Below are positions 15,322 through 25,582 of a DNA stretch of 64,000 bases, piece after piece. Each line of letters starts with the position of its first letter. Position 1 is the first letter of the stretch. Origin of the DNA: an uncultured Eubacteriales bacterium (GTDB lineage: Bacteria; Bacillota; Clostridia; Christensenellales; CAG-138); assembly GCA_902802575.1 (NCBI GenBank), contig CADCMN010000001.1:18410-82409 (forward strand), in the 5' to 3' direction. The notes under the pieces are model-generated. The model saw only the letters and a program-made list of their open reading frames with translations, was not told the DNA's origin and made no database searches. The position numbers and the translations under genes are program-made.

Positions 15322-15398
15322 GGGGATGTAGCTCAGCTGGTTAGAGCGCTGTGTTCACATCGCAGAGGTCTAGGGTTCGAGTCCCTACATCCCCACCA
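15322..15398 (+). tRNA. tRNA-Val (anticodon CAC)
   Basis: Manual cloverleaf. Acceptor GGGGATG/CATCCCC, D stem GCTC/GAGC, anticodon stem CTGTG/CGCAG with loop TTCACAT, T arm TAGGG-TTCGAGT-CCCTA, discriminator A, encoded CCA. Confidence 0.9.
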
Positions 15399-15437
15399 AA
15401 GAAACAGCCACCCAATGCGAGACACCGATAAGGAAGT
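15375..15437 (+). repeat. left arm of interrupted long palindrome (tRNA-Val T-loop through 3' trailer)
   Basis: Inverted match to 25517..25582 in three identical blocks: gttcgagtccct (12), accaaagaaacagccaccc (19), accgataaggaagt (14). Confidence 0.85.
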
Positions 15438-15583
15438 AAACAAATCATATCGGGTTTCGCAGTAAGGGCAAAGGATTTCGGAGAGAGTGAAAAAGCTCTC
15501 TCCGATTTTCATGTTTGCACATTTGTGTTTCTGTGAAGATGCTGATATGCTGAAAGCAGAAAAACACAAAGGAGGTGTGAAAC

Positions 15584-15958
15584 ATGGAAAAGTACATTGT
15601 GGATGAGCAGAACGGATTGGAGTATGAATTGGTCGGGGATTATTACATCGTCGCCGGTGAGGACGAACCGCCGGCGAGACCGATCGGCGTATGGGGCACT
15701 ATGCGGCGCGACTATCTGAAACGGTACCGGCAATCGCTGTATTATCAACTGTTGCTTTCGGGCAAACTGAACGATCACCTTGCCGACATGGAAGAACAGG
15801 CGCAGGATTTGATGTGGACGCTGACAAAGCAGATGGCAAAAGCTGAAGGCGTGACTGAGGAATTGAAACGCAAAGATCAGATGGCGTGGGTAGGCGCGAT
15901 GAACAGCATTCAATCTCGCGTGAGAGAAATAGTTAATCATGAATTGATTTTCTCATAA
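15584..15958 (+). CDS. tnpV: TnpV family protein
   Basis: 124 aa. Family-typical IGVWG..R.YLK..R...Y..LLLSGKLN.HLAD..EQAQ..., AEGVTEELK..DQMAWVG.MN and ELIFS C-terminus. Confidence 0.8.
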   Translation: MEKYIVDEQNGLEYELVGDYYIVAGEDEPPARPIGVWGTMRRDYLKRYRQSLYYQLLLSGKLNDHLADMEEQAQDLMWTLTKQMAKAEGVTEELKRKDQMAWVGAMNSIQSRVREIVNHELIFS

Positions 15959-15970
15959 CAGCCGTATGAG

Positions 15971-16006
15971 AATGCTCGTCGGATTCGTACCCGGCGAGCA
16001 TTTTTC
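15971..16006 (+). terminator. intrinsic terminator after tnpV
   Basis: aatgctcg..cgagcatt hairpin followed by ttttt. Confidence 0.75.
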
Positions 16007-16016
16007 ACAGATTCGG

Positions 16017-17027
16017 TCAGGATTGCAGAGCTTTCAATACCTCTCCACTGTCGCCGTCGATACAGATGGAGTACGGCTTGATCTGCTTCGGGCAGATCGC
16101 TTCGTTATAGTTTAGACAGGCGTAGACCGCATTCGGGTTCTCCACGGTCAGCGCCCAGAAGGGGTATTTGATGATGATCGGCGTATTGGCGCCCACGCCG
16201 ATCTCTAAGTACAGAACGTGCTTTTCCTTGCACGATTCCAAAAAGGCGGCGTAGCGAGCCGACGCTTCGCGCCAACCGGCGTCTTCCACGAAGGTATCGT
16301 CGGCGCGCAGATTCATCGTGACCGCGCTCCCGTCGTCGGGGCAGCGCGGGATCAGTTCGTGGGGAAGACGCATGGAGATCAGCCGATCCCTCGGAATCTG
16401 AAAGACACCGTTCCCGTCCGGAATAAAGCGCTGGGCAGCCATTGCTTTGATTACCCAGTCCCGATTGTCGTACGTCTTGCCGTTTTTTCCGCTGATCGTC
16501 TGGAACAGCCCGTAATCCCCCTGCGTATAGAACAGGCGTTTTTTTTCGAAGCCCGCACGCTGAAACTGATGATCCACGTTGGTGGTGATCACGAAATAGT
16601 TTTTATCCTTGACCAACGCAAGCAGATTCTTATAAACCGGCTTCGGCGCGTCGATATAGCGGTTATAGTAGATATGCCGCGCCCACCATGCCCAGCGTGT
16701 TTCCTCGTCCGGGAACGGATAAAAACCACCGGAATACATATCCGTAATCCCAAACTGCTTTTTGAAATCGAAGAAAAACCGCTCGAAGCGTTCGCCGGAA
16801 TAGGTCAGTCCCGCGGCAGTGGACAGGCCCGCGCCCGCGCCGATCACGATCGCGTCGGCCGTCTCCAATTCGTGTTTCAGCAGGGCGATGTTCTCCTCAC
16901 GGCTGCCTGTTCCGTAGGAAAGTCCGGCGCGGAACGACCGCACTGCGGCAAGCCCCTTTTCGATTGTTTCAAGATACCCATTGGGCTGTTCATGATAAGA
17001 GCGCTTCATAGTATCTTCTGTCCTCAT
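16017..17027 (-). CDS. SIR2 family protein, SirTM-like (macrodomain-linked sirtuin)
   Basis: 336 aa (start may be Met-7 at 17009). IGAGAGLSTAAGL, ITTNVDHQF and YTQGDYGLFQ motifs. Overlaps the upstream macro gene by 20-38 nt. Confidence 0.8.
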   Translation of the reverse strand: MRTEDTMKRSYHEQPNGYLETIEKGLAAVRSFRAGLSYGTGSREENIALLKHELETADAIVIGAGAGLSTAAGLTYSGERFERFFFDFKKQFGITDMYSGGFYPFPDEETRWAWWARHIYYNRYIDAPKPVYKNLLALVKDKNYFVITTNVDHQFQRAGFEKKRLFYTQGDYGLFQTISGKNGKTYDNRDWVIKAMAAQRFIPDGNGVFQIPRDRLISMRLPHELIPRCPDDGSAVTMNLRADDTFVEDAGWREASARYAAFLESCKEKHVLYLEIGVGANTPIIIKYPFWALTVENPNAVYACLNYNEAICPKQIKPYSICIDGDSGEVLKALQS

Positions 17028-22918: not shown

Positions 22919-23103
22919 TCGGAGATGGATGGGGCTTCCTTCTTTGGTAGGTATTTGGCATGGGGGACGCTGCTCCCCCGTACCGGATCGATCCGATGCA
23001 GCCATGGCTGCGTTGGATTAGCGAGCATTGAATTTTGCCGGCATTCGGCCAAATTCGTAACGTAAGGGAGTTCCCTTAAACCCCAGCATATGACAAAAAA
23101 GGA

Positions 23104-23515
23104 GATCAAACACATGAAACGCACCAATAAAATCACGTTCCGGCTATCGGATCAAGAGCTTGCCCGGTTCAAGCAGCAGGTCAAGGAAAGCGGATTGTTT
23201 CAGGAAACATATCTGCGGTTTCTGATCGAGGGCTTTTGCCCAAATCAGCTTCCTCCGCCGGAGTTCTGGAAAGAAATGGGAGGTTTTTTCAAAGCGTTGG
23301 GCAATCTGGATGAATTGGCAAAAATCGCGTATCGCACCGGAAACATCCATTACGAGGAAATCCGGGAAATGTATCGGGACATAGCCGAGCATATTCACCG
23401 GATCGAGGATGAAATCTTTCATCATGTTCCTATTGACCTGCGGAGCATTCCAAAGAAAGACCGTCCGAAACAGAAGTACAAAGCACCCGCGAAACAGGAG
23501 GAAGAACAGGCATGA
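23104..23515 (+). CDS. MobC-like / ribbon-helix-helix mobilisation accessory protein
   Basis: ORF 23090..23515; ATG at 23104 follows AAGGAG. KITFRLSDQELARFK..YLR pattern. Confidence 0.55.
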
Positions 23516-23715
23516 AAGATATGAACGGAAAAGCAGATGATTGCATCGTTTCGCTGATCCCTTATCTGTACGACAGCATGGAAGCGGCGACGCAGCCGGA
23601 GACCTTTACCGTGCAGATCGGGAAAACGGAATATGTGGTCAACACCCATTTCAATCCGAACGGTCGGCAAACCATGTTTCAGCAAATGAAGGACTTGATT
23701 CTGCGGCAAGATTGA
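23512..23715 (+). CDS. tnpW: TnpW family small protein
   Basis: 67 aa. IGKTEYVVNTHF....GRQT......KDLILR pattern. Start overlaps upstream stop (ATGA). Confidence 0.65.
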   Translation: MKDMNGKADDCIVSLIPYLYDSMEAATQPETFTVQIGKTEYVVNTHFNPNGRQTMFQQMKDLILRQD

Positions 23716-23788
23716 CAGGCGGAGCCGGGTGCAGTAGGATCAAGATGCTCTTACTGTGCCCGGTTGTCGGAAAGGAGATTATGATTAC

Positions 23789-25468
23789 ATGACAACAGTG
23801 ACTAATAACGGGCAACAGAAAATCACGGCTCTCTATTGCCGCTTGTCGCAGGACGACGGCAGAGAGGGCGAATCGAACTCCATCGCCAACCAGAAGGAGA
23901 TTCTTTCCGCATTTGCAAAGCAGCACGGGCTGCTGCATCCGCAATTCTTTGTGGACGACGGCGTAAGCGGTACGACCTTCGCAAGACCGGACTTTCAACG
24001 CATGGAAGCAATGGCGGAAGCCGGACAGATCGGCACAATCGTGGTCAAAGACCTTTCCCGCTTCGGACGCAACTATCTCGAAGTCGGACAGTACCTTGAA
24101 ATCAAGTATCCGACGCTCGGCATTCGCTTCATTGCGATCCAGGAGAACGTGGACACCGCAAGCAACACAGGCACGGAACTCATGCCGTTCTCCAACATCT
24201 TTAACGAATGGTATGCGGCACAGACCAGCAAGAAGATTCGCGCGGTATGGGCGTCCAAAGCAGCAAACGGCAAGCGTGTCGGTTCAACCGTCCCTTACGG
24301 ATATGTCAAAGACGCGAATGATCGGGAGATCTGGCACATCGACGAACCGGCGGCTGCGGTCGTCCGAAAGATCTTCAATCTGTGCCTTGACGGGAACGGT
24401 CCGCAGGAGATCGCAAGGATATTGGAAGCCGAGAAGATCCCGACGCCGACGGAGTATTTTAAGGAGAAAGGTGTCGGAACAGCAAATCCGCTTCCCAAGA
24501 TACCGTGCAGATGGGAATCCAGCACGGTGGTACACATTCTGGAGAATCGTCACTATACCGGCTGCCTTGTAAACTTCAAAACCACAAAAGTCAGCTACAA
24601 GGTACACAAGAAGGTGGATCGCCCGATTGCGGAGCAGCAGATTATTCCGAATATGCAGCCCGCAATTATCTCGGAAGAAACATGGTTGCGGGTGCACGAG
24701 CTTCGGAAGAACAAACGCCGTCCTACGGCGACAGGGAGAACAAGTCCGTTCTCCGGTTTGGTGTTCTGTGCAGATTGCGGTGCAAAACTGTATTTCTGTG
24801 CATCCAAGTCCACCAAGCCGAATCAGGAATGGTTTTGCTGCTCGAATTACAAGTCCGGACGCGGCTCCTGCAAGATTCACTACATTCGGAACGTGGTATT
24901 GGAGAAAATTGTTTCTGAAGCGATCAGCGATCTCTGTACCTTTGTCCGCTGCCACGAGAGCGAATTTGTTGAGATCATGGAACAGCGGCAGAACGGGATC
25001 AAAAACGCTTCCCTGCAGAAGATGAAGAAAGCCGTTGCTGACGCAGAGAAACGTATCGCCGAGATTGACCGCATGATGATCCGTATTTACGAGGATAACG
25101 TAAACGGCAAAATCTCCGATGATCGCTTCTATGCCATGCGGGATCAGTATGAAGCCGAACAACGGAAACTGAAAGCGACAGTTCAGACCGACCGAGAAGA
25201 ACTCTTGAAAGCAGAGTCAACGCGAAATGATTTCCGCCTTCTGCTGAAAACGATCCGTGACCGCACCGACAACGAAACGCTCACTTCGGAATTGGTCAAT
25301 TTGTTAATCGAGCGGATCGAGGTACACAACCCTGTGAAGATCGACGGGCACGAGCGCGTACAGGTGGACATTTACTTTACCGGCGTCGGCAGATTCAAAG
25401 TGCCGAACGAAGCAGAACTGGTCGAACTGTTTGCAGCGACAGACAACGGAGACCAACGCTCCGCGTAA
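23789..25468 (+). CDS. large serine recombinase (TnpX-like)
   Basis: ORF 23756..25468; likely start [10 protein letters not shown]. Resolvase domain [34 protein letters not shown]. Recombinase and zinc-ribbon regions ([21 protein letters not shown]). Coiled-coil C-terminus. Confidence 0.9.
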
Positions 25469-25516
25469 CGGAAACGGAGCAGCCCTTTCGGACTGCTCCG
25501 CCCCTCACACAAGAAA

Positions 25517-25582
25517 ACTTCCTTATCGGTATCGCCCTAATCGGGTGGCTGTTTCTTTGGTATTTTTGGGAGGGACTCGAAC
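25517..25582 (-). repeat. right arm of interrupted palindrome (inverted copy of tRNA-Val T-loop and trailer)
   Basis: Its reverse complement reads gttcgagtccct-cccaaaaat-accaaagaaacagccaccc-gattagggcgat-accgataaggaagt. Confidence 0.85.

Follow-up and report, generated by a model that had tools for sequence, protein, structure and literature searches.

A 10,125-bp relaxase-less element of the Tn4451/Tn6106 type within the terminator of a tRNA-Val gene, and intrinsic terminators as candidate landing sites of its serine recombinase

In a 64,000-nt stretch of contig CADCMN010000001.1 from an uncultured Eubacteriales bacterium, referred to here as the window, the terminator of a tRNA-Val gene is split by a long inserted segment. 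We consider it very probable that this segment, positions 15414-25540, is a 10,125-bp relaxase-less integrative element of the Tn4451/Tn6106 type, and that its TnpX-like, multi-targeting large serine recombinase (LSR) joined the attachment site of the element (attP) to an attachment site of the host (attB), the tRNA-Val terminator, at the dinucleotide AA. As close copies of the element sit in terminator hairpins at many unrelated places, the terminators and not the tRNA are taken to be the landing sites, and from the comparison of these sites we conclude that terminators appear to be the preferred attB class of this LSR family, with the tRNA as a bystander. The element itself is real, well delimited and of a known type (Tn4451/Tn6106-like), and the terminator preference is the only part of this picture that we did not find described. 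Coordinates are those of the window, and features lie on the forward strand unless a minus strand is indicated.

The tRNA-Val(cac) gene occupies positions 15322-15398 (ARAGORN; Rfam tRNA, 68.6 bits) behind a promoter-like site at 15280-15308 detected in a promoter scan. Three sequence blocks, each with a single occurrence in the window, return as exact inverted copies some 10 kb downstream: GTTCGAGTCCCT (12 nt, 15375-15386) at 25571-25582, ACCAAAGAAACAGCCACCC (19 nt, 15395-15413) at 25543-25561, and ACCGATAAGGAAGT (14 nt, 15424-15437) at 25517-25530. Their order is identical on the left and on the right, and a repeat search of the window recovered two of the three, as inverted repeats I3 and I17. 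By our own arithmetic for 11.5 kb, chance would yield about 2e-4 perfect inverted 19-mers and about 0.25 14-mers, so that the three colinear blocks are not a product of chance. An earlier note on this DNA had located these blocks exactly and had read them as a single palindrome, with a serine-recombinase element of about 10 kb inserted at its apex between 15438 and 25516. The insertion at the apex of the tRNA-Val terminator palindrome was confirmed, but the proposed boundaries were not, as the true junctions lie 24 nt further out on each side.

Empty sites were sought by way of the peptidase gene that directly adjoins tRNA-Val on the left, using loci that encode related peptidases. Nine rumen Clostridiales genomes, whose flanking peptidase shows 85-89% protein identity, carry the same tRNA-Val, and in all nine of them the gene is followed by CCAAAGAAAnAGCCACCC, a loop of 3-4 nt, GGGTGGCTnTTTCTTTGG and a T run, with a stem of 18-19 bp; the sequence after the T run corresponds to the window sequence to the right of 25561. 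The inner 24 nt of either side are present in none of the nine, which places the insertion within the loop that closes the 18-19-bp terminator stem. The left half of the host target (the B half of attB), at 15395-15413, is the 5' strand of the stem, ACCAAAGAAACAGCCACCC, which pairs with 25543-25561 in the stem that is kept at the nine empty sites. Repeat pairing, empty sites and folding place the right half (B') at 25541-25568, where TC is followed by the 3' stem strand GGGTGGCTGTTTCTTTGGT and the T tract ATTTTT.

The second line of evidence for the ends is a contig from another assembly, L082, which at 10,128 bp consists of the element alone. It starts with AATGCGAGACACC (opening AATGCGAG) and ends with GGTATCGCCCTAA (closing CGCCCTAA). 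Together with the empty sites, these contig ends assign the junctions to the AA at 15414-15415 (attL), where L082 begins, and to the AA at 25539-25540 (attR), where it ends, with an inserted length of 10,125 bp between the two. Across insertion sites AA is the sole sequence common to the left and right junctions, long direct repeats being absent, and it is therefore the crossover core. Just inside attL, at 15416-15437, lies the left end of the element, TGCGAGACACCGATAAGGAAGT (the P' half of attP), which includes a 17-nt inverted-repeat arm (15421-15437) and is identical in the copy L085 and at the start of L082. Its counterpart ACTTCCTTATCGGTATCGCCCT (the P half, 25517-25538) carries the other 17-nt arm of inverted repeat I17 at 25517-25533 and recurs at 10 distinct junctions. 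The reconstructed attP, ACTTCCTTATCGGTATCGCCCT-AA-TGCGAGACACCGATAAGGAAGT, spans 46 bp with 17-nt inverted arms that are 94% complementary, and to judge from its sequence this is the anatomy expected of an LSR attP. On a circular element the joint would read GGTATCGCCCTAATGCGAGACACC; the tRNA-Val attB would be ...AAAGAAACAGCCACCC-AA-TCGGGTGGCTGTTTCTTT-ggtATTTTT, and the empty tRNA-Val site would read CAGCCACCCAATCGGGTGGCTG. For this window the true ends, the crossover core and attP are fixed, and the tRNA turns out not to be the target; its link to the insertion, which had been thought relevant, is incidental.

The same data bear on the proposal that the host once contained a palindrome of about 130 nt, reaching from the tRNA T-arm through ..ccgataaggaagt|acttccttatcgg.., and that an element delimited by 15438-25516 entered its exact centre. 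The three inverted blocks are indeed real and colinear, and an intact long palindrome that includes a tRNA 3' end does exist at tRNA-Ser, as the earlier note had pointed out. We nevertheless regard this history as highly improbable. The inner 24 nt of each side are those missing from the nine empty sites, which show a short terminator hairpin only, without an inner palindrome; the inner block accompanies the element at nine further sites and makes up both ends of the element-only contig, and the outer 12-nt block is part of a host unit seen at the empty sites. The postulated centre thus never existed in the host, as the block is the subterminal inverted repeat of the element and remains unchanged at nine non-tRNA sites; the inner part of the palindrome, whose intact form would hold ACCGATAAGGAAGTACTTCCTTATCGGT, is already refuted. 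Neither does the 12-nt block form part of the target, being the 5' strand of a structured host unit that is present with or without the element. It had also been allowed that the inverted blocks might be terminal repeats of the element that recur at sites away from tRNA genes. This is what we found for the 14-nt block only, the 19-nt block being a genuine host terminator. The earlier reader was misled because the inverted att arms of the element read as an inner continuation of the host palindrome, and a caution for sequence-alone reading follows: LSR att arms inside a host dyad make a palindrome look longer than it really is.

The recombinase gene at the element's right end (23789-25468) encodes a TnpX-like LSR of 559 aa. 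Its Resolvase (PF00239), Recombinase (PF07508) and Zn_ribbon_recom (PF13408) domains all score above the Pfam cut-offs, DUF4368 (PF14287) is found at 59.4 bits, and the best match among solved structures is the catalytic domain of TnpX (PDB 2MHC, E 3.5e-32). Note that the list of open reading frames (ORFs) starts this gene at a GTG at 23756; the start was set at 23789 because homologues of 97-100% identity are 559 aa long, and one database protein (P0001), likewise of 559 aa, is 100% identical to the LSR of the window. Inverted repeats of 17 nt near both ends and an AA on both sides would also suit a transposon of the DDE type, with its inverted repeats in subterminal position and AA as a 2-bp target-site duplication. 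Such a transposon has hardly any probability in our estimate, as no DDE transposase was found among the ORFs, the inverted repeats lie 7 nt inside the junctions, as LSR half-sites would, and an intact TnpX-like LSR is located at the element end.

We also considered a genomic island of the classical tRNA-targeting kind, which recombination within the tRNA gene would have formed and which two direct copies of the tRNA-Val 3' end (15376-15407 and 25710-25741) would delimit. Such a repeat is present: D7 has 32 nt, is 75% identical and begins with 12 identical bases, TTCGAGTCCCTA. This direct partial copy of the tRNA is, however, found at all nine empty sites, where it is often better preserved, and since the host unit to which it belongs is present with or without the 10-kb element, an island bounded by D7 is disposed of. 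As no tyrosine integrase was detected among the element ORFs and the same element also occurs away from tRNAs, we find this reading scarcely credible.

The LSR-mediated insertion is best judged from the other loci at which the element is found. Loci of LSR homologues and one metagenome scan yielded 10 different right junctions that all follow the end ACTTCCTTATCGGTATCGCCCT-AA, two of them from the scan, which used the right-end pattern. Identical ends are thereby observed at 10 distinct insertion sites, and the one in the window is the only one next to a tRNA; nearly all of the sites resemble terminator hairpins. At six of them the LSR is 97-100% identical (window, L083, L085, L099, L101 and L102); the recombinase protein is exactly identical in L101 and L102, whose flanks differ. 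Two further sites, where the DNA is 92.5% and 94.9% identical to that of the window element, carry partial LSR genes, and two more have LSRs of 84-85%. Integration of an LSR cluster at 90% identity at more than three distinct targets classes the enzyme as multi-targeting. The subfamily of L091 (LSR 85% identical) was left out of the site count, as its right end has diverged and the junction could not be placed, and for the homologue P0007 (89% identical) a gene list without DNA was available. In L085-L088 the element, with an LSR of 97% identity, is flanked by genes for bPH_2 and Germane domains, with the junctions ...AAAAAAGCCTTGCGTG|AA|TGCGAGACACC... on the left and ...CGCCCT|AA|GACGCAAGGCTTTTTTT on the right, from which the attB of L085 was reconstructed as AAAAAAGCCTTGCGTG-AA-GACGCAAGGCTTTTTTT. 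The outer arm ACTTCCTTAT is retained even by relatives with LSRs of only 61-63% identity, again with a GC stem and then a T run behind the end. Three scans of a viral collection returned no element ends or junctions.

The two complete attB sites each fold into a hairpin whose 4-nt loop has AA in its middle, with energies of -35.9 and -24.4 kcal/mol and z-scores of -8.0 and -7.5. In both cases an A tract lies upstream and a T tract downstream of the stem, which therefore has the look of a bidirectional intrinsic terminator. A GC-rich stretch followed by a T tract was found in seven of the nine readable right flanks, as compared to 2.7% of all AA positions in the host DNA analysed (binomial p = 4e-10). 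In the profile of 11 half-sites, positions 3-5 are G or C in 10, 8 and 10 cases, with no invariant stem base, and T occurs in 7-9 of the 11 at positions 12-16. The half-site tolerated by the enzyme would accordingly be degenerate, with positions 1-10 from the core rich in G/C and positions 12-16 rich in T, and bidirectional terminators, with their order of A tract, stem, loop, stem and T tract, would supply this pattern on both sides of the dyad. We see it as an evenly balanced question whether this DUF4368 branch of LSRs evolved to use bidirectional intrinsic terminators as a generic attB class, defined by a degenerate dyad, a G/C stem of free sequence, a T tract at fixed distance and AA in the loop; the enzymes could even read hairpin or cruciform geometry instead of base sequence.

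Several points weigh against this account of the element and its targets. Both flanks are known at only two of the 10 sites, and the AA at the loop centre is directly seen in these two; the site of L098 is devoid of a T tract, and L090 narrowly misses the pattern of a GC-rich stretch and T tract. A same-species empty site was not found, the closest relatives being the genomes with 85-89% identity in the flanking protein, and because of this the original loop sequence, AATC, is one that we only infer. An exact look-up of the left flanking peptidase gave no match, and that of the right flanking protein returned matches only on contigs that already carry the element. The circular (attP) junction was found neither in the metagenome scan with the right-end pattern nor in the viral collection or the fetched loci, and mobility is indicated only by the 10 different sites and by contig breaks that fall exactly at the element ends. 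Some copies are decaying: in L082 (8377-10056), L083 and L084 the recombinase gene is split into ORFs of 92 and 439 aa in otherwise near-identical copies, which are probably inactivated. Finally, selection against insertions within genes could enrich intergenic terminators among the surviving copies.

Taken to its end, this last point leads to a recombinase whose preferences hardly extend past an AA core and a loose pattern of AT and GC, with the excess of terminators reflecting the survivorship of tolerated insertions. Low specificity of integration has been described for elements of the Tn4451 type (PMC5704250), Durrant et al. take a 'TT core with T/A-rich ends' as relaxed specificity (PMC10083194), and the L098 site without T tract fits as well. 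Survivorship, however, does not account for a core that lies precisely in the middle of the loop in two unrelated hairpins, nor for a T tract held at positions 12-16, and it does not give seven of nine against a background of 2.7%, because most intergenic AA positions lie outside terminator loops. We consider it unlikely as the full explanation; survivorship of harmless insertions may still add to the enrichment that a preference of the recombinase for terminators would produce.

If true, terminator targeting would offer hundreds of harmless landing sites in any genome and would explain the motif of 'AT-rich flanks' so far taken as relaxed specificity. It would also explain why insertions are tolerated, as the landing is intergenic and, in the present case, accompanied by an apparent replacement terminator. 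Multi-targeting DUF4368 recombinases are in development as genome-insertion tools, for which terminator targets, again if true, would constitute a concrete and testable landing rule. A site that closely resembles the tRNA-Val attB in its stem and tracts is the terminator of tRNA-Ser at 50463-50499 (CCAAAACAAAACCACCC-GCAT-GGGTGGTTTTGTTTTGG on the tRNA strand). Its loop contains neither AA nor TT, and the site is unoccupied.

LSR dimers bind attP and attB, cut both strands at the core, rotate subunits and religate. Applied to the window, dimers on the attP of a circular element and on the host attB, the intrinsic terminator of tRNA-Val with AA within its 4-nt loop, would cut at AA, rotate and religate, and the non-palindromic core would fix the orientation. 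TnpX excises without a separate directionality factor, while TnpV was proposed to be Xis-like (PMC5704250, PMC3158075). Because TnpX-type enzymes excise in this way, the recombinase probably also excises the element. About 65 nt inside the left end, a terminator-like hairpin and its T tail at 15478-15515 (hairpin 15478-15505; in the terminator scan an 11-bp stem followed by TTTTCATGTT) appear to stand in functionally for the split terminator of tRNA-Val. This hairpin probably stops read-through from tRNA-Val now that the gene's own terminator is split. At the right junction, behind the recombinase gene, the scan detected a small hybrid hairpin that includes the host T tract.

Bacterial group II introns of class C integrate behind the stem-loops of terminators, and the insertion sequences (IS) IS1397 and ISKpn1 insert into the loops of palindromic units. 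These introns and IS elements make use of abundant, selectively neutral hairpins by chemistry other than conservative serine recombination, namely retrohoming and DDE transposition, respectively. For serine recombinases that target terminators we found no report in the literature searched, which does not disprove that one exists. The LSR of the window shares its DUF4368 domain with the multi-targeting clade of Durrant et al. 2022 (Cp36, Enc9, Pc01), a clade described as multi-targeting and including TndX-like transposases (PMC10083194). With respect to the motif of this clade, the core in the window reads AA or TT depending on the strand, with A-rich and T-rich tracts flanking it. Durrant et al. 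took the 'TT core with T/A-enriched ends' as relaxed specificity, and their main text is without the words terminator, hairpin and palindrome (PMC10083194). In the present case, by contrast, hairpins of intrinsic terminators make up the sites, and their loop holds the core.

With Tn4451 and Tn4453, the integrative mobilizable TnpX elements from Clostridium perfringens and C. difficile, the element has in common a TnpX-type LSR together with tnpV and tnpW, and site specificity is low or multiple in both. The core of Tn4451 is reportedly GA, and Bannam et al. in 1995 reportedly placed tnpX first in the gene order, directed inward as seen from the joint, with the att site upstream of it. Measured against this layout, the window has an AA core and the LSR as its last gene, reading outward, and because of this position the att site of the element lies between tnpX and tnpV. 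Strand exchange takes place at a 2-bp core without longer direct repeats, as in Tn4451, which however encodes a MobV relaxase that was not found among the ORFs of the window element (PMC5704250). The cargo differs too, comprising redox and ADP-ribosylation genes in place of catP, and a ParB-like gene is present in addition. Membership of Tn4451/Tn4453 thus fails on the relaxase, which is the MobV-type TnpZ in that family, on the gene order and on the core dinucleotide. By description, the layout matches that of Tn6106 of C. difficile R20291, located with Tn6104 and Tn6105 inside Tn6103, which has TnpV, one Mob protein and, on its right side, a single LSR (PMC3158075). The 2-bp flanking repeats of Tn6104 are also found in its circular form (PMC3158075). 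Unlike the window element, Tn6104, Tn6105 and Tn6106 are housed by a conjugative transposon, and the paper on them describes no terminator as a target (PMC3158075).

The base composition of the element is foreign, with a GC content of 51.7% compared to 58.3% in the rest of the window. The gene content that the earlier note had read from the sequence, TnpV, ParB-like, MobC-like, TnpW and a TnpX-like LSR, is borne out by Pfam and NCBIfam domains. The first gene on the left is tnpV (15584-15958; Pfam TnpV, 134 bits), and the LSR at the right end is preceded by a ParB-like protein (22055-22918; Pfam ParB_N and HTH_ParB, TIGR00180), a NikA/MobC-like relaxosome accessory protein of the ribbon-helix-helix type (23090-23515; Pfam NikA-like at 25.8 bits, just under the cut-off of 27, and a weak NCBIfam MbpA match) and tnpW (23512-23715; Pfam TnpW, 29.6 bits with a cut-off of 25). 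The cargo between tnpV and this backbone lies on the minus strand. It encodes a SirTM-type ADP-ribosylating sirtuin (16017-17027; PDB 5A3A 'SIR2 family protein', E 1e-51, and a weak NAD-dependent deacylase match in NCBIfam), a macro-domain protein-ADP-ribose hydrolase (16990-17796; Pfam Macro, NCBIfam NF003163 at 307.8 bits with a cut-off of 272) and, all assigned by Pfam, a protein with PNPOx and 4Fe-4S (ferredoxin) domains (17802-18428), an Rrf2 regulator (18477-18917), a D-2-hydroxyacid dehydrogenase that is missing from the L085 copy (18933-20015) and a SnoaL-like protein (20085-20942). A comparison of copies showed that the cargo content varies and that the block between tnpV and the backbone is swappable; PADLOC detected no defence system in it. 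A pairing of SirTM-type sirtuin and macro-domain hydrolase (16017-17796, minus strand) is thus seen on a mobile element, adjoining an Rrf2-regulated redox gene set. Between cargo and backbone, about 1.1 kb (20943-22054) are without a convincing ORF, and this segment is conserved in the close copies L082 and L085. A decayed form of the DUF6076 gene that occupies this position in L101 was considered for it and rejected, as tblastn found no similarity.

Searches with Pfam and NCBIfam revealed no relaxase domain in the ORFs tested, in line with the earlier note. As only an accessory protein and a candidate oriT-like repeat (oriT, origin of transfer) are present, transfer would need the relaxase and the mating pore of a helper, and the window element may be seen as a relaxase-less, helper-dependent version. 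The repeat is a conserved motif of 75 nt (GGGGTTTAAGGGGACTCCCTTACG..CGGATTTTGCGG.AAATGCCGGCAAAATCCAATGCTGGCTAATCC), whose two inverted copies flank the ParB gene and which is present in the family members inspected. Copy 1 lies at the boundary of cargo and backbone (21063-21141), copy 2 in inverted orientation just upstream of the NikA/MobC-like gene (23015-23089, minus strand; alignment A1 for both). Copy 1 is also the breakpoint of cargo swaps and of the deletion variant L089. From its sequence and position the motif is a candidate oriT or a candidate binding site for a protein such as ParB or MobC. In the relative L107 (115-4719), whose LSR is 63% identical, the genes are, in order, NikA-like, relaxase (PF03432), ParB, an ORF of 64 aa and LSR, and on this basis the locus appears to be a relaxase-bearing version of the same backbone module.

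The structured unit of the host that contains the outer 12-nt block lies outside the element, at 25571-25720. A unit of about 90 nt is found to the right of the tRNA-Val terminator in every relative, that is, at the nine empty sites. The 12-nt block, AGGGACTCGAAC (25571-25582), is the 5' strand of its helix P1, whose 3' strand is TTCGAGTCCC at 25710-25719, as evidenced by covariance model R1, the nine empty sites and compensatory changes. The unit consists of GGGACTCGAAC, helix P2, the conserved loop TAGTGAATG, hairpin P3, CAGAG and the return strand of P2; in its 3' part, a small hairpin with a CGCA loop is followed by TTCGAGTCCC(TACATCCCCA), the direct partial copy of the tRNA-Val 3' end. 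RNAalifold, applied to nine copies, predicted 28 pairs, 10 of them with compensatory changes. With model R1 the window copy, which carries an insertion, scored 50.8 bits, and a second copy beside tRNA-Ser (50224-50314) scored 82.6 bits; the 'intact analogue' at tRNA-Ser shares the architecture of tRNA 3' end, terminator and inverted copy of the tRNA 3' end. The unit matches no Rfam family. In the window, Rfam gave no matches at the gathering threshold beyond the two tRNAs and only chance-level ones in 25500-25800. The unit is absent from more distant Oscillospiraceae loci and is apparently lineage-specific. The unit beside tRNA-Val was also considered as a tRNA or pseudo-tRNA on either strand, a candidate that was dropped as the T-stem is not conserved. 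Among the possibilities for its nature are att sites that are relics or act as decoys, a mobile hairpin of the REPIN kind, and an RNA able to mimic the tRNA 3' half or to pair with it.

Such units follow the terminators of tRNA-Val, tRNA-Ser and tRNA-Leu (25571-25720; 50150-50500, minus strand; L002 15790-16030; L003-L010, directly downstream of tRNA-Val). Their plan consists of the reverse complement of the T-loop and 3' part of the local tRNA, a conserved module and a direct copy of the same 3' part, so that the outer arms track whichever tRNA adjoins. The pair of TAGTGAATG and CAGAG in the loop is possibly K-turn-like, as judged by eye. In L009, in L002 and at tRNA-Ser the units occur in tandem.

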